This document shows positions 36,001-54,000 of a DNA stretch of 64,000 nt, piece after piece. Position 1 is the first letter of the stretch, and each line of letters starts with the position of its first letter. Source of the DNA: an uncultured delta proteobacterium (lineage in GTDB: Bacteria > Myxococcota > Myxococcia > Myxococcales > Anaeromyxobacteraceae); assembly GCA_963814585.1 (NCBI GenBank), contig CAWFDF010000016.1, forward strand, positions 1 to 64,000, in the 5' to 3' direction. A program made the position numbers.

Positions 36001-39000
36001 CTGTTGCCGAAGACGGTGATGGTCTCCCTCACGCCGGGCGTGTCCTCCAGGTACTCGCCGTAGAACCCGGCCAGCACGTCCCGGTAGGCGCGGTGCTCGG
36101 GCTTGGGGTTGCACTGGATCACGAAGAGCGCGTCCAGGGTCCGGCGCGCCGCGAAGTACTGCTGGTTGGCGTGGTCGACGATGAGCCGGATGTTGGAGCC
36201 GTAGAGGTCCCGGTACAGGTAGTCGAGGCAGATCAGCACCATGAAGTGGAAGAAGGCCGGCTGGGCGCGGAACCACCAGAAGTGCCGGCCCCGGTACAGG
36301 TCGCCGGACTTGTCGAGGAACTCCTCGGCGCGGAACGGGTGGCTCTTGGCCTCGAAGAACACCCGCAGCCGCCCGCTCGCCTCCTTCACCGCCACGCAGC
36401 ACCAGTTCACCGGGATGTCGGGGAGCGCCCCGGCCGCCAGGTCGCGCTCGACCGCCGGGATGGCCAGCCGGTTGTCGTCGCCGAAGCGCACCAGGGTGTC
36501 GAGGTAGGCGCGCAGCGGGACGTGCTCCAGGCCGAACATGGTCACGGTGCTGGGCCGGAAGCGTTCGCGCACGATGGCGAGGGCGTCGTCGAGCCGCGAG
36601 GCGGGCAAGGCCGCCTCCGGGAAGGTGAGGAAGTGGAGCTTCTGGAAGCGATCGTCCCGCGCCACCAGCTCGAGCACCGAGGCCACGGTGCTCCACTGCG
36701 CCTCGCGGTCCCGCAGGGCGAACCCCTGCGCGGTGGCGATGACCCGCACCGGGACCTGGGCCACCAGGCAGTGGAGGTGGTTGCCCCGCGGGTAGTCGAG
36801 GTTGACCTCGGCCTCGAGGATCTGGATCACGATGCCCGCCCCCTCGGTCCGCTCCGGCCCCAGCCGCCCGGCGGCGCCCGGCCCGATCGAGGGCGCCCTG
36901 CCGGCCGACCCCTCCACCTTGCGGCGGCGACGCCGGCGGGGCAACCGGCCTCACGGGGCGCCTGGCGAGCCGACGCCGGCCAAGCCCGGGCGGGTTCTCC
37001 CGAGGCGACCCACCGCGGCGACCGGACCAGGTTCGCTCCCCGGTCGGGGGGCCCCGGACAGGCAGCTTGACGGATGGCACCGCGCCCAGCACATTCAACC
37101 ATTCAATTGACAATGATCAATATCGAGACCCGTCGTCGATCGGCGCTCGCCCACTACGGCGAGATCGCCCGCCTGGGCAAGGCGATGGCCAGCCCGGTCC
37201 GGCTGCAGCTCCTCGACCTCCTCCGGCAAGGGCCGCGAACCGTCGAGGAGCTGGCCGGCACCGCCGGCGTCACCGTCGCCAACTCGTCTCGCCACCTCCA
37301 GCAGATGCGCTCCGCCCGGCTGGTGACCGCGGCGCGGGAGGGGCGCCACGTCCGCTACCGGCTGGCGGACGGCGGCGTCTCGGAGGCCTTCGGGATGCTC
37401 CGGGGCCTCGCCGAGACCCTGCTCCCCGAGATGGACCGGCTGCGGCGCGAGCTGGGCGCGCTCGAGGCCTCCGAGCGCCAGGCGCTGCTGTCCGACCTCC
37501 GCGGCGGACGGAGCACGCTCCTCGACGTCCGCCCCGCCGAGGAGTTCGAGGCGGGGCACCTGCCCGGGGCCCGATCGATCCCCCTCGACGAGCTGCCCTC
37601 GCGCCTCGACGAGCTCCCTCGCGACCGGCCGGTTGTCGCGTATTGCCGCGGCCCCTACTGCCCGCTTGCCGCGGACGCCGCGGAGATCTTGAGTCGGGCC
37701 GGCTACCGCGCCCGGCACCTCGACCTCGGCGTCCCGGACCTGACCCCGGCACGGCCGCACCGCAGCAGCAGCGCACTCCACCTTCGCACGAGGAAGTCCC
37801 GATGAGAGCCATCCACGCCGCCGTCGCGCTGTCCCTCCTCTCCCTGGCCACCCCGGCCCTGGCCGCCGACGAGTTCATCGGCCACGAGGAGGCCAAGGGG
37901 CTGGTCGGAAAGCCCAACGTCCGCTTCGTCTGGGCCGACGCCGAGAAGGAGCTCGTCAAGGGGCACATCCCCGGCTCGGTGGAGGCCTACGCCCACGACC
38001 TGCACCTCCTCGACGACGTCAAGGCGTGCAAGGGCCTGCCCATGTGCGAGCCGCGCGCCGGCAAGTTCATCGGCGAGAAGCTGGGCATCGACGCCGGCAC
38101 CGAGGTGGTGGTCTACGACGGCGGCCCCGGCGTCAACGCCAGCGGCGCCTGGTTCTTCCTCAAGCTCTACGGCGTGAAGAAGGTCCGCATCCTCGAGGGT
38201 GGGCTGGCCACCTGGAAGGCCCACGGCGGGCCGGTGGAGGCGGGCCCGCCGGCCAAGGTGGCGGCCAGGCCGTTCACGCCCGCCGTCGACTGGAGCATGA
38301 TCGCCGCGGTCGACGAGGTGAAGAAGGCCAGCGGCGACGCCGCGCACTACCTGCTGCTGGACTCCCGCCACAACCTCGACGAGTTCACCGGCAAGACGCT
38401 GCAGGGCGCCCTGGCCTCCCCGGACAAGGAGGAGACGGTGAAGCGCGGCGGCGCCATCCCCGGCGCGGTCTTCTCCCCGTGGAGCAAGTACGCCGGCAAC
38501 AAGGACGGCCAGGCCGACAAGCCGACGCTGAAGACCCAGGCCGACCTGGTGAAGCAGCTCGAGAAGCTGAAGAAGAACGGCTACGACCCCGCCAAGACGG
38601 TCATCAGCTACTGCCACGTCGGCCTCGGCCGCGGCTCCTTCCAGTACCTGGCCCTCCAGAAGGCCGGCCACAAGAACGTCAAGGTCTACGTCGGCTCCTG
38701 GGACGAGTGGGGCAACGACCCCTCGCTCCCGCTGGCCGCGCAGCCCTAGCGCCCGGGAGCGTCCATGCTCGGTCCCTTCCTCACGGGCGCCCTCACCGGC
38801 GCGGGCTTCGGGGTGGTGCTGTACAAGGTCGGCGCCACCCGCTACTCGCGCGTCATGGGGATGCTCACCCTGCGCGACACCAAGGTGATGAAGTTCGCCT
38901 TCACCGCCATCGGGGTGGCCTCCATCCTCTACGGCCTGGCCGCGGCGCTCGGCCTGGCCGAGGGGTGGGGGCTGGCGCCGCGGGTGATGCCCTGGCTGGG

Positions 39001-51000: not shown

Positions 51001-54000
51001 CGTCTTCTGGGGCGCCGCCTACCACCCCAGCGAGGAGATCCTGGCCTCGCTGCCGGCGGCGCTGCGGGCGGCGCCGGTCCCGGCGCACCTCGGCACCTTC
51101 TTCAGCATCTACTTCCTCATGACCGGCCTGCACGGCATCCACGTGCTGGTCGGCATGGGGCTGTACCTGTGGCTGATCCGGCGGGCCGGGCGCGGCGACT
51201 TCTCGCCCGGCTACTACGTCCCGGTCGACGCGGTGGCCCTCTACTGGCACCTGGTCGACATGATCTGGATCTTCCTCTTCCCGCTCTTCTACCTGATCTG
51301 ACGAGGCCGGCCATGAACGACCACGCCGCTCCCCACGCCGCGCCGGCCGCCGAGGCCGCCCCGCACGCGCTCCCCGCCTCGGTGCTGCTCGGCACCGCCG
51401 GGGCCCTGCTGGCGCTCACGGCGCTCACGGTGGCCTCCTCGCGCCTCGACCTGGGCCCCTTCAACATCGTCCTGGCGCTGGCCATCGCCGGCCTGAAGGC
51501 CTCGCTGGTGGCCATGTTCTTCATGCACCTCAGGTACGAGCACCGCTTCCAGGCGGTGATCTTCGTCTCGGCGCTCTTCTTCGTGGCCCTCTTCGTCGGC
51601 TTCGTGGTGTTCGACACCATGCAGTACCAGCCGGACCTGAGGGCCGCGGTGGAGGCGGCGGCGGCCGCTCCCAGCCCGTCATCCCAGGTAGCCCGTCCCT
51701 CCCAGGTTGCCCGTCCCGGCGCCACCACCTCATCGGGCGCGGGGGGGGGGTCCTGCTTCCTCGCGGAACTAGAGCGAGAACTTCACGCCGACGTTCCAGT
51801 AGAACGAGCGGGTGGCCCCGACGTCGACGGTGCTGACCTTGCTCAGGTCGGTGAGCGACCACTCGTACTTCAGGTCGGTGAAGAGGAAGAGGAAGTCGAG
51901 GCCGGCGCCCACGAAGGCGCCGTAGGTCGGGCTCTCGAAGTCCGACTTGGTGAGGCCGGTGACGTTGACCGCCGTCACCACGAAGGCCGAGGCGCCGCCG
52001 AAGGCTCGCAGGGCGAAGTCCGCCTTCGGATCGCCGATGAGGTGGAACCCGACCATGGCGGGGATCTGCAGGCCGGTGATGCTGGTGAAGTCGATGCTGC
52101 CGCTCGGGGTGGTGGAGGTGATGTCCGCGCTCTTCTGGGAGTAGAAGACCCCGCCCTCGAAGTAGAGCGACTCGCCGAGCAGCACCGTGCCGCCCAACTG
52201 CCAGCCCGCCTTGCCGCTGGCGGTCCCGCCCTGCGGATCGGAGGCCACGTCGGTGAAGGTGAGGCCCAGCGCGGGCTTGAGCTCGAGCGCGCCGGCCAGG
52301 CCGGGAAGGAGGAGGGCGGCGAGGAGGAGGGCGGTGGGCGCGAGACGGTTCATGGCGGGGCCTTTCCGGGGGAGGGCGCAACGTTCGGGCCGCGGTGGCG
52401 CTGCGGCGGGGCGTCGAGGGCTCCCCTCACGGTAACGACGGCGGCGTGGCCGCGCAAGTTCGCGTCCGGACGGGCGCCGGGCGTCGGAGCGGTACCTGGC
52501 CGCGAATCCGCCTCGACTTCGTTGACCAGCCGCGGCGGTCCTCCCTAGGATGCCGCTCAGTCCAATCGCGCTGGAGGGGATGATGCTCAGGACGCTGGTG
52601 GTCATGGTGCTGCTGGTGGCTACGACGGCCCGCGCCCAGGAGGGTGCGGCGAGCCCGCCGAAGCCGGAGGCGCCCAGGAAGACGCGGATCGCGGTGCTGG
52701 ACGTGCAGTACGCCGGCGCCGGCGACCGCAAGACGGTGGAGGGGCTCTCGGCGCTGCTGGCCTCCGAGGTGGCCCGCCGGCCCAACCTGGCGGTGCTGGC
52801 CGGCGCGGACCTGCGGGCGCTGGTTGGCTTCGAGCGGCAGAAGCAGCTGCTGGGGTGCACCGAGAGCGCCTGCATCGCCGAGCTGGCGGGGGCGCTCGGC
52901 GTGGCCTACCTGGTCTCCAGCGAGGTCTCCAAGGTGGGGACCACCTGGCTGCTGAGCCTGACGCTGCTCGACGCCGGCAAGGCCCAGGCGCTGAACCGGC
53001 TGACCCGCAAGGCCTACTCCGACGACCAGCTCGTCGAGGAGACCTCCACCGCCGTGGACGAGCTGCTGAAGGCGCTGCCCGCGGCCGGCGCGCCGCTCCC
53101 GCCCTCCGCCCAGGCGCCCCGCGCCGAGCCGGCCCCGGCGACCCAGGCGCCCGGACAGGTCCCGCCCGGCTTCCACCGGCACGACGGCTTCTTCCTGCGC
53201 CTCCACCTCGGCGTCGGCGGGCTCAAGAGCAGCAGCGACACGCTGGACTTCTCGGGAACCTCGGGGAGCTTCGCGGTCGCGGCCGGCCTCTCCATCATCG
53301 ACAACCTGGTGCTCTACGGCGAGATCTTCGACGACGTGGCCACCAGCCCCGAGGTGAAGTTCAACGGGCAGCCGGTCACGGCCAGCGGCTCGGTCACGCA
53401 CGCCCTCATCGGCTACGGGGTCGGCCTGGCCTACTACTTCGTGCCCTTCAACGGGTACATCGGCCTCACCGCCGGCGTCGGCGGCCTCAGCCTCGAGGCG
53501 GACGGCCAGACCTACAGCACCGAGAACGGCCCGGTGATCCGCCTCAGCGTGGGCAAGGAGTGGTGGGTCTCGACCGACTGGGGCATCGGCGTGGCCCTCA
53601 ACCTGGTGAAGGGCAGCGCCAAGGACTCGCCGCCCGGCACCGAGACCTTCAGCAGCACCTCCTGGAGCGTCGCCTTCTCGGCGACCTACAACTGACGGTG
53701 CCGCCCGGGCCGGGGCACGGGCCCGGGCGGTGAGCCGGCGCGCCGGCTGGAGCCTAGTGCGTGCCGGCAAGATGCCTACTGCGAGAGCCAATCCTCTCGC
53801 TGCGGCAGGCGGCCTCGTCGGTCCGCTGCTCAGTGTAGCGCTGCTACGCTTCCGCTGCTCCCTCCTCGGGCGCCAGCCTCGCTTCGGTCTCGGCTCTCTC
53901 GTCACGTCATCTTGCCTGGGGCGCGGCACTCGCGGCCCGGGGGCTCTCAGGGCCCGGCGCAGCCGAAGGCCCGGTTGGAGCGCCGCGCCGCCGCCAGCTT

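Follow-up and report, generated by a model that had tools for sequence, protein, structure and literature searches.

A conserved operon joining a type II molybdoenzyme to a rhodanese relay and Cys-tailed proteins: a probable route for periplasmic sulfane-sulfur oxidation

What does a periplasmic molybdoenzyme act on when its genes stand among those of a sulfur relay? The question is raised by a 64,000-nucleotide stretch of an uncultured Anaeromyxobacteraceae genome (contig CAWFDF010000016.1; hereafter the window), in which an ArsR-rhodanese gene, a double rhodanese, YeeE, a rhodanese ending in GGGCL, alpha, beta and gamma subunits, an OB-fold protein ending in FKGCL, Mrp and a caa3 oxidase follow one another (Table 1). 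The genome-wide survey's note had placed these genes correctly and had recognised that alpha and gamma are frameshifted. All the genes lie on the plus strand; compared with an intact locus (L001) of 92% identity, alpha has one base too many near 41673 and another near 42183, and gamma one near 44773. In a comparison of run contigs that covered positions 42183 and 44773, the former base is absent from the contigs of runs X1, X4 and X5 and the latter from those of X1 and X4 and from part of those of X5; all three frameshifts are apparently errors of assembly. The ArsR-rhodanese fusion is a probable persulfide-sensing regulator. As we read it, the operon probably encodes a periplasmic dehydrogenase of carrier-bound sulfane sulfur (persulfide) that replaces SoxCD without being homologous to it; we infer its substrate, its product and the binding of the tail.

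Table 1. Genes of the operon and its downstream neighbours in the window
Position	Strand	Feature	Basis or remark
37074..37805	+	fusion of an ArsR/SmtB repressor with a rhodanese domain	possible alternative start 37113
37802..38749	+	double-domain rhodanese, secreted, with YCHVGLGR in its active loop; core gene	
38765..39892	+	member of the YeeE/YedE sulfur transporter family with the motifs GxCPGTC and GGCTTG	PF04143
39885..40040	+	51-aa ORF, one membrane span, without family	same-position homologues in several loci
40037..40507	+	membrane-anchored single rhodanese-fold protein, AGGGCL end; putative carrier 1	PF00581, alignment
40572..43438	+	type II Mo-bisPGD alpha, TAT signal, HCVNCQGNC (FS0), YVGDMFPG Asp ligand; split frame	
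43452..44498	+	Fe-S beta subunit	TIGR03478, 516.7 bits (cut-off 480.7)
44501..45677	+	gamma, in which an EbdC-like haem b domain is fused to a single c-type haem domain; frame broken by the extra base near 44773	
45674..46081	+	secreted OB-fold protein, FKGCL end; putative carrier 2; core gene	
46101..46973	+	Mrp/ApbC Fe-S cluster carrier ATPase	
47066..47959	+	SCO1/SenC copper chaperone	
47956..48933	+	caa3 oxidase subunit II, c-type haem	TIGR02866 above cut-off
48930..50600	+	cytochrome c oxidase subunit I	TIGR02891 above cut-off
50597..51301	+	cytochrome c oxidase subunit III	

The locus set comprised 126 loci, of which five were duplicates, leaving 121 distinct ones. Wherever alpha, beta and gamma were complete, the small gene followed gamma (106 of 106), and the gene order reported earlier as conserved recurs, with all seven genes in series at 36 of the 44 Myxococcota/Bdellovibrionota loci and 17 of the 26 from Aquificota, counts that take in truncated contigs. 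The constancy claimed for the upstream relay genes stands for the double rhodanese but not for YeeE and the GGGCL protein, which are missing in all 56 Campylobacterota loci; these two are dispensable, and the core consists of the double rhodanese, alpha, beta, gamma and the FKGCL protein. Among the 44 Myxococcota/Bdellovibrionota loci, the ArsR-rhodanese gene occurs in 25, caa3 linkage in 13 and an adjoining gene for a SorA-like sulfite dehydrogenase in 14; SQR-like and SorA genes lie immediately upstream in G466 and G467, and soxXYZAB or soxB adjoins the operon in G156, G174, G182 and L096. At 80 Ddh-like control loci, neither the small protein nor YeeE was found, and a rhodanese match occurred once. 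The loci show that the operon is real and that co-inheritance links its alpha, beta and gamma subunits with the double rhodanese and the small Cys-tailed proteins.

The separate type II clade that had been proposed for alpha appears in a FastTree tree as a distinct branch (SH-like 100) of Myxococcota, Bdellovibrionota, Aquificota and Campylobacterota sequences, outside the clades of characterised enzymes in that tree, in which ClrA was included and the SerA, DdhA and PcrA sequences themselves were left out. Identity is 47–92% inside the clade, 33–40% to ClrA and 36–40% to a representative of the nearest outside group, which we take, from its host list and KEGG-style name, to be Ddh-like. The gap said to follow the clade persists in identity but not in E-value, other type II alphas in Anaeromyxobacteraceae matching at 1e-99 and 3e-68 (31–32% identity). 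The alphas score 756, 804 and 796 bits on TIGR03479, below its cut-off of 984.75, yet the tree puts them among type II alphas; the EbdA model gives 337–350 against a cut-off of 2000. The Mo-ligating Asp is invariant (77/77) and aligns with the GD motif of PcrA, but YVGDMFPG, previously called invariant, is present in 56 of 124 alphas, and YLGDMF[ST]G in 56 of 124. The FS0 motif HC[VIM]NCQGNC (H-x3-C-x3-C and a later Cys) occurs in 124 of 124 and a twin-arginine-like pattern, SRRSLLK in this alpha, in 115 of 124, and the predicted model of an alpha orthologue reaches a TM of 0.87 to PcrA. Gamma scores 65–91 bits on TIGR03477 (cut-off 170), with conserved Met and Lys motifs and exactly one CxxCH (121/121), while the ExtH model matches the operon weakly (46 bits, cut-off 200). 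No type II delta chaperone gene was found in the Myxococcota operon loci; a TorD-like gene follows the operon in 42 of 56 Campylobacterota loci, and the sole TorD-like match of this genome sits behind narGH.

The two tails are invariant, as had been stated: across the 121 distinct loci, FKGCL ends 102 of 102 small proteins and GGGCL 69 of 69 membrane rhodaneses, and of 32,929 stop-bounded frames in this genome only two end in either motif, both in the operon. An identical GCL end is carried on two unrelated folds. The likeness to SoxY drawn earlier holds for a terminal Cys borne by a flexible arm but apparently not for homology: the FKGCL protein, which has two inner Cys that never vary and ends in a free tail of 12 residues, is predicted to be an OB fold (SoxY is not among the structural matches listed, the best of which has Z 6.8), its partner has a rhodanese fold, and a Pfam SoxY search of the carriers gave no match. 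In the double rhodanese, the C-terminal domain holds a catalytic Cys loop (consensus YCH[VI]G[LATI]GR across loci) that aligns with YCRIGER of a solved sulfurtransferase; the GGGCL protein could not be aligned over the loop and, by eye, has no Cys at the rhodanese loop site.

What is new here is the distribution of the operon relative to SoxC, sHdr and Dsr. Gene absences in draft genomes may be artefacts. Alpha is present in 17 of 77 genomes of the Anaeromyxobacteraceae family; three family genomes have SoxC and SoxB and all lack the operon, and SoxB is found in none of the 17 that have it. This genome gave no match for Sox, SQR, FCC, sHdr or SorA, nor for the SoxC model TIGR04555 (sulfite-oxidase family, whereas alpha belongs to the DMSO-reductase family); the former result, and DsrA in two of the 17, count against the dehydrogenase. 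Of the two caa3 oxidases of this genome, one sits behind alternative complex III and that of the operon does not. Among 301 Campylobacteria, alpha occurs in 26, SoxC in 44 and SoxB in 46, and the 46 SoxB-bearing genomes divide into 33 with SoxC only, 12 with alpha only, one with both and none with neither (naive Fisher p 3e-10). The two states alternate 5–6 times on the SoxB tree, and correction for kinship leaves five independent pairs, four concordant, none discordant and one tied (p 0.125); over all 301 genomes the exclusion is not significant (p 0.15). Since 13 of 26 alpha-bearing Campylobacteria, like all 17 family genomes, are without SoxB, the chemistry of SoxCD is not copied exactly. 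It is improbable that the enzyme is instead a periplasmic sulfite dehydrogenase, with the rhodanese splitting thiosulfate, the molybdoenzyme oxidising free sulfite to sulfate in the manner of nitrite oxidoreductase and the tails parking the sulfane half. Type II enzymes do oxidise small oxyanions, as is established for Nxr, and a SorA-like gene is lacking in seven of the 17 family genomes with alpha (this genome and six others) and in 20 of 39 genomes of the Hydrogenothermaceae block; however, SorA-like genes co-occur with the operon (10/17 with alpha, 6/60 without) rather than excluding it, and the enzyme that the operon does exclude, SoxC, has sulfane sulfur as its substrate.

A second exclusion is seen among 138 Aquificota genomes. 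In the Hydrogenothermaceae block (around G001) the operon is present in 36 of 39 genomes and SoxB in 32, while SoxC and, in a search run with a control, sHdrB1 were each found in 0 of 39 and DsrA in 0 of 36; alpha is found in none of the 68 genomes of the sHdr-bearing block, 61 of which have an sHdrB-type match, and is missing from the 31 genomes G112–G142. This alpha/sHdr split counts as one event, and our searches conflict with a report of an hdr cluster in all three Aquificales lineages (PMC3665934). In a Sulfurihydrogenibium mat dataset, the supplement lists a gene run, detected as protein, that apparently matches the operon (PMC6918859), and it appears strongly expressed, with RNA/DNA FPKM of 5792/435 and 2007/225 for the rhodaneses against 311/149 for soxY (PMC6918859). 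Sulfurihydrogenibium genomes are reported to contain no known gene for oxidising elemental sulfur, and sulfur accumulates around such cells, which counts against the dehydrogenase (both PMC4912159). Present in sulfur oxidisers that lack the known enzymes for oxidising elemental-level sulfur, the molybdoenzyme of the operon is probably the one missing from that step.

Could the operon run in the opposite direction? The reductases ClrA and PcrA are among the closest characterised relatives, a Psr/Phs-like beta-NrfD-alpha-TorD operon lies directly downstream in 21 of 70 loci (17/26 Aquificota and 4/44 others), napA is close by in L043 and L141, and Rieske, cytochrome b and cytochrome c/EB_dh genes stand behind a sister clade in Nitrospirota and Nitrospinota, the Psr/Phs-like operon and these partners both being compatible with reduction. 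A reductase of rhodanese-delivered thiosulfate, polysulfide or tetrathionate fed by cytochrome c, as in Ser, Clr and Pcr, or a disproportionation in which the Psr-like neighbour helps to split polysulfide into sulfite and sulfide, is nevertheless unlikely: it leaves unexplained the exclusion with the oxidative SoxC and sHdr, the linkage to caa3 and SorAB and the absence from G112–G142, and the core operon has no quinol dehydrogenase.

The sister clade carries the same relay with the tail SK[AS]CL, and in its loci L322 and L323 the tail Cys codon is an in-frame TGA followed by a shared hairpin of 7–8 bp with one compensatory pair (z -0.7 to -2.0). SelB scores above cut-off in G519, and G520 has only a short match below it; the residue is apparently selenocysteine. 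One sister protein ends in LTKAWK, without Cys, which counts against the dehydrogenase. YeeE and rhodanese have links to selenium, and these, the apparent Sec tails, the Ddh-like nearest group and the want of a delta chaperone in Myxococcota would fit a relay for maturation, activation or repair, or tailed proteins that are structural subunits, beside a molybdoenzyme acting on another substrate (an organosulfur compound such as DMS, or a selenium oxyanion). This is unlikely: Ddh-like loci have no relay, the relay is secreted but cofactor loading occurs before TAT export, high rhodanese expression fits a role in flux, and both the range of hosts and the exclusion of SoxC suggest inorganic sulfur. 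The survey's idea of an enzyme on carrier-bound sulfane sulfur is favoured by the exclusion of SoxC and sHdr, the co-occurrence of SorA, the oxidase without its usual complex III partner and the apparent exchange of Cys and Sec in the tail of the sister clade.

For the persulfide dehydrogenase several steps can be envisioned: the double rhodanese would take sulfane sulfur from thiosulfate, from polysulfide (supplied by SQR or the environment) or from SoxY, and pass it to the FKGCL protein, at the Cys before the last residue, and likewise to the membrane GGGCL protein where present; the loaded tail would reach the Mo centre, where the persulfide may be oxidised by oxygen-atom transfer from water. 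Sulfite would then be released, or Cys-S-sulfonate cleaved by SoxB where present, and SorAB or Sox would finish the sulfite. Electrons may pass from FS0 through the beta clusters, haem b and haem c to soluble cytochrome c and here to caa3, elsewhere to other oxidases or Nap, and YeeE may either move sulfur or signal to ArsR-rhodanese. In this Sox-free genome, the operon would be a stand-alone module for aerobic thiosulfate/polysulfide oxidation.

Of the known type II systems, DdhABC, SerABC, ClrABC, PcrAB and EbdABC share the TAT-exported alpha, His-Cys3 FS0, Asp ligand, four-cluster TIGR03478 beta and EbdC-like haem b gamma. The operon differs in a gamma fused to a c-type haem, in having no delta gene between beta and gamma, and in its obligatory rhodanese and Cys-tail protein, and the gate residue sites of PcrA, which we take to be Phe164/Tyr165 in its numbering, align with small residues in the operon alpha. 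PsrABC with Sud, Srr and ExtH are cases in which a periplasmic rhodanese feeds a molybdoenzyme; they differ in being Cys-ligated, NrfD-anchored, quinol-linked reductases without a Cys-tail OB protein. With SoxCD/SoxYZ the operon shares a periplasmic Mo enzyme, haem output, a carrier whose terminal Cys sits on a flexible arm and the same place in genomes, but apparently no homology: SoxC comes from the sulfite-oxidase family, the present carrier is modelled as an OB fold, the tails end in GCL rather than GGCGG, and the operon is usually without SoxB and apparently loaded by rhodanese instead of SoxAX. A two-operon Sox layout of Campylobacterota that includes a stand-alone soxCDY2Z2 is described in an excerpt of PMC8359478, and one such operon was found in G157. 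The sHdr-LbpA and rDsr systems with Rhd, TusA, DsrE and YeeE likewise have a protein-bound persulfide relay, rhodanese, YeeE, an ArsR regulator and sulfite as the proposed product; they are, in contrast, cytoplasmic flavin/Fe-S or sirohaem systems, and both are missing in nearly all operon-bearing genomes.

A 2026 survey has the truncated Sox pathway completed in three ways, SoxCD, rDsr and sHdr (PMC13500833). The chances seem evenly balanced that the operon is a fourth, undescribed route, in which a type II Mo-bisPGD persulfide dehydrogenase is served by a swinging-arm carrier of its own, an OB fold with Cys or Sec, that it is the main path from S0, polysulfide or thiosulfate to sulfite in Hydrogenothermaceae and many SoxCD-less Campylobacterota, where it may predate SoxCD, and that it marks an unrecognised capacity to oxidise sulfur among the Myxococcota, Bdellovibrionota, Nitrospirota and Nitrospinota of soil and sediment. 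Hydrogenothermaceae dominate hot-spring and vent mats, and none of SoxCD, rDsr or sHdr was found in them in our searches; the operon would fill this gap and the matching one in Campylobacteria, a reading testable in cultured isolates such as the named Sulfurihydrogenibium strain of L050. If true, it would add to the DMSO-reductase family a reaction on a protein-bound persulfide, together with a new carrier fold, and would turn a gene now annotated ‘DMS dehydrogenase’ or ‘nitrate reductase-like’ into a marker that changes the census of sulfur oxidisers in wetlands, sediments and groundwater.

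The operon occupies one head-to-tail run of genes in a genome of 4.34 Mb that is 92% complete, and its layout (a molybdoenzyme joined to a rhodanese/YeeE relay, Cys-tailed proteins and a caa3 oxidase) is the one that the genome-wide survey's note had described. An ArsR-rhodanese, a secreted double rhodanese, YeeE and a 51-aa membrane ORF form the front; a membrane-anchored rhodanese-fold protein ending in AGGGCL follows, and then the alpha and beta subunits of a type II Mo-bisPGD enzyme. The gamma subunit combines an EbdC-like haem b domain with one c-type haem. Next comes the small protein, which is secreted, 135 aa long and ends in AFKGCL, and Mrp/ApbC, SCO and caa3 subunits II, I and III close the operon. 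Judged against an intact, 92%-identical locus (L001), three single extra bases split alpha and gamma, and since contigs of public runs omit two of them, the three frameshifts are most likely assembly errors. An apparent frameshift near 31450 in a glycosyltransferase-like gene of the same window also agrees with indel errors in the assembly. Among the neighbours, the divergent gene immediately upstream of the regulator has strong codon bias and no match in Pfam; an apparent COX4-like ORF begins right after cox3, where locus L028 has COX4; and a downstream cluster looks like copper handling, perhaps with the oxidase as its beneficiary.

Positions of the operon, its neighbours and related features at other loci
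Feature	Sequence	Position	Strand
TPR-containing membrane glycosyltransferase-like gene	window	29922-31832	
Divergent gene, 385-423 aa	window	35673-36944	
Operon	window	37074-51301	+
Apparent COX4-like ORF	window	51310-51770	
Redoxin, transporter-like beta protein, Met-rich lipoprotein, NosL, FtsX/ABC pair, Cys-rich membrane protein	window	54501-61435	
Second Mo operon	L053	15749-21116	
Second Mo operon	L061	16587-17471	
Second Mo operon	L062	17363-20629	
Second Mo operon	L010, L030, L039, L041		
Tandem YeeE copies	L054	5855-9291	
Tandem YeeE copies	L048	6988-9267	
Tandem YeeE copies	L140		
LRV-repeat and 118-aa proteins	L141	16943-17862	
Small-protein homologue with TGA tail	L322	3946-4326	
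Small-protein homologue with TGA tail	L323	1516-1887	
ORF with SoxY-like C-terminus	L327 (G467)	854-1276	

The alpha subunit had been assigned to a clade of its own, and this is borne out by a FastTree of 71 alphas in which the clade is single (SH-like 100, branch 0.51); alpha and SoxB trees were built with FastTree and quick IQ-TREE. Its members, drawn from the best 80 of 319 relatives in a scan of genome contigs and from 47 found with a Campylobacterota alpha as query, are labelled in their records as Myxococcota, Bdellovibrionota, Hydrogenothermaceae or Campylobacterota, apart from a few given as Pseudomonadota or unplaced. Identity is 47–92% within the clade, compared with 33–40% to ClrA and 36–40% to a Ddh-like representative; the members conserve both FS0 motif and Asp ligand, and the predicted model superposes on PcrA with a TM of 0.87. 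An RRNKG motif was considered as an anion-binding signature and rejected, as Ddh-like and Ebd-like outgroups carry it too. Three alphas (P0005, P0007, P0009) sit on long branches within the Campylobacterota portion, and that of P0005, without the FS0 cysteines (FVSLSNFGQNSSAWE), is perhaps an inactive paralogue. Two Anaeromyxobacteraceae genomes (L204 on G460:C6, L205 on G499:C83) hold a different type II enzyme, 31–32% identical to the operon alpha and accompanied by beta, gamma-like and TorD-like genes.

The double rhodanese, alpha, beta, gamma and the FKGCL protein form a core common to all four phyla. YeeE and the GGGCL protein are absent from all 56 Campylobacterota loci, where TorD, polyferredoxin and Mrp stand instead. 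In 80 Ddh-like control loci neither the small protein nor YeeE was found (0/80 each), and a rhodanese matched in one. Some Aquificota loci carry YeeE in two or three tandem copies, and two proteins precede Mrp in Campylobacterota loci (L141), a divergent one with LRV repeats and one of 118 aa without a family.

The Cys tails claimed to be invariant proved so in every protein compared, with FKGCL ending 102 of 102 small proteins and GGGCL 69 of 69 membrane rhodaneses. The predicted fold of the small protein (pLDDT 85.6) is an OB barrel from which a tail of 12 residues extends freely, and the protein is not a SoxY homologue. Fold searches returned only generic OB folds, Atlas matches at 0.86–0.90 are unnamed or belong to DUF5818 (10% of members), and the 120 listed of 691 homologues are all unnamed or hypothetical. 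An ORF in G467, some 5 kb ahead of the SorA and SQR genes, ends in TKSVVKGGCG, a SoxY-like C-terminus, and has no match in Pfam.

The next branch, joined to the clade at SH-like 99, is the P0004 group of 19 loci, mostly from Nitrospirota and Nitrospinota. Ahead of alpha and beta these loci have ArsR, a small-protein homologue (13/19), a double rhodanese (14/19) and YeeE (14/19, often divided into two genes); downstream stand either Rieske, cytochrome b and cytochrome c/EB_dh genes or a bd-I-like membrane protein with cytochrome c. Nine tails read SK[AS]CL, one LTKACK and one, without Cys, LTKAWK, and in two loci TGA replaces the Cys codon (KA-TGA-S-stop). Selenocysteine appears to occupy this position in the two loci, which share a hairpin 3′ of the TGA tail with weak folding scores; one of the two genomes has a clear SelB. 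Exchange of Cys and Sec usually signals a chemically active thiol.

What has been shown is the operon's composition, linkage and distribution; most likely its enzyme oxidises carrier-bound sulfane sulfur to sulfite. A rhodanese would put sulfane sulfur onto the tail Cys of a putative carrier, the tail would bring it to the Mo, and oxygen from water would be transferred stepwise until sulfite is released, whose oxidation SorAB or Sox would complete; electrons would reach an oxidase or Nap by way of haems b and c. Oxidation is the direction to which the caa3 genes point: the second caa3 of the window's genome stands behind alternative complex III genes and that of the operon has no such partner, so that gamma/cytochrome c would be its donor, an argument applying to 13 of 44 loci only. 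Within the Anaeromyxobacteraceae, a SorA-like sulfite dehydrogenase occurs in 10 of 17 genomes with alpha versus 6 of 60 without, counts in which related genomes are not independent. A SorA-like gene adjoins the operon in 14 of 44 loci, and two genomes, G466 and G467, have SorA together with an SQR-like gene immediately upstream. SQR itself does not track the operon, with strong matches (one query type) in 3 of 77 family genomes, two of them with alpha.

Several observations count against a dehydrogenase. Many alpha hosts lack SoxB, the window's genome has no match for SQR, SorA or Sox, DsrA is present in 2 of the 17 family genomes with alpha, and sulfur accumulation is reported in the accessible part of PMC4912159. 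A Psr-like operon behind 21 of 70 loci counts against it as well: this second Mo operon (211-aa Fe-S protein, NrfD, a Phs/Psr-like alpha of about 1088 aa that is below all cut-offs, TorD, polyferredoxin) lies directly downstream in 17 of the 26 loci from Aquificota and in 4 of the other 44, and only TorD and polyferredoxin are kept in Campylobacterota.

The distribution of SoxC bears on whether the enzyme could take the place of SoxCD. Among 301 Campylobacteria genomes, alpha is found in 26, SoxC in 44 and SoxB in 46, and the SoxB genomes divide into 33 with SoxC only, 12 with alpha only, one with both and none with neither. A SoxB tree that covers 42 of these 46 shows 5–6 changes of state, and of five independent pairs four agree, none disagrees and one is tied (p 0.125), such that the exclusion is repeated yet formally not significant. 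Alpha without SoxB (13 genomes) and SoxC without SoxB (10) would be expected if both were stand-alone modules; a separate soxCDY2Z2 operon is described in the accessible part of PMC8359478. The operon adjoins sox genes in three genomes (G156, G174, G182) and at locus L096.

Alpha is present in 35 of 138 Aquificota genomes, all within a block of 39 around G001 (the Hydrogenothermaceae block, as we infer this and other Aquificota block names), and a 36th genome has beta. SoxB occurs in 32 of the 39, 31 of which carry the operon; SoxC (0/39), sHdrB1 (0/39) and DsrA (0/36 tested) were not found there. None of the 68 genomes G006–G073 has alpha, and 61 of them have an sHdrB-type match, confirmed as sHdr in four. 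TIGR03288 matches (E 1e-75) in the Hydrogenothermaceae block were rejected as sHdr: they belong to subunit C of succinate dehydrogenase, whose Fe-S gene lies alongside, and such genes receive the same assignment in Table S6 of PMC6918859. Against the dehydrogenase, the available part of PMC3665934 places hdr genes in all Aquificales lineages. Within the Anaeromyxobacteraceae, alpha is present in 17 of 77 genomes; three have SoxC and SoxB, all without alpha, and SoxB was absent from the 16 others tested.

In the accessible portion of the PMC6918859 supplement, the proteins of every gene in the run YNG2014_100266x were detected in a Sulfurihydrogenibium mat. The list (Mo oxidoreductase, NrfD, Fe-S protein, cytochrome c, type II Fe-S subunit, Mo-dinucleotide protein and two rhodaneses, the first of them 492 bp long) agrees with the operon in gene order and in the 492-bp length, as in the Sulfurihydrogenibium locus L050. 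For the rhodaneses, RNA/DNA FPKM values of 5792/435 and 2007/225 are given there; SQR has 10073/874, and soxY, of which no protein was detected, has 311/149. The authors' sulfur table omits the type II enzyme. Contigs of RNA run X16 are about 85–95% alike to parts of the operon; they are relatives making up a small share and say nothing about expression level.

A literature search found no description of the operon enzyme, though subscription papers and supplements may contain one, and the accessible part of PMC13500833 names only SoxCD, rDsr and sHdr. The enzyme is a new branch of the known type II family, and its mode of action is probably that of SoxCD, achieved with parts that are unrelated.
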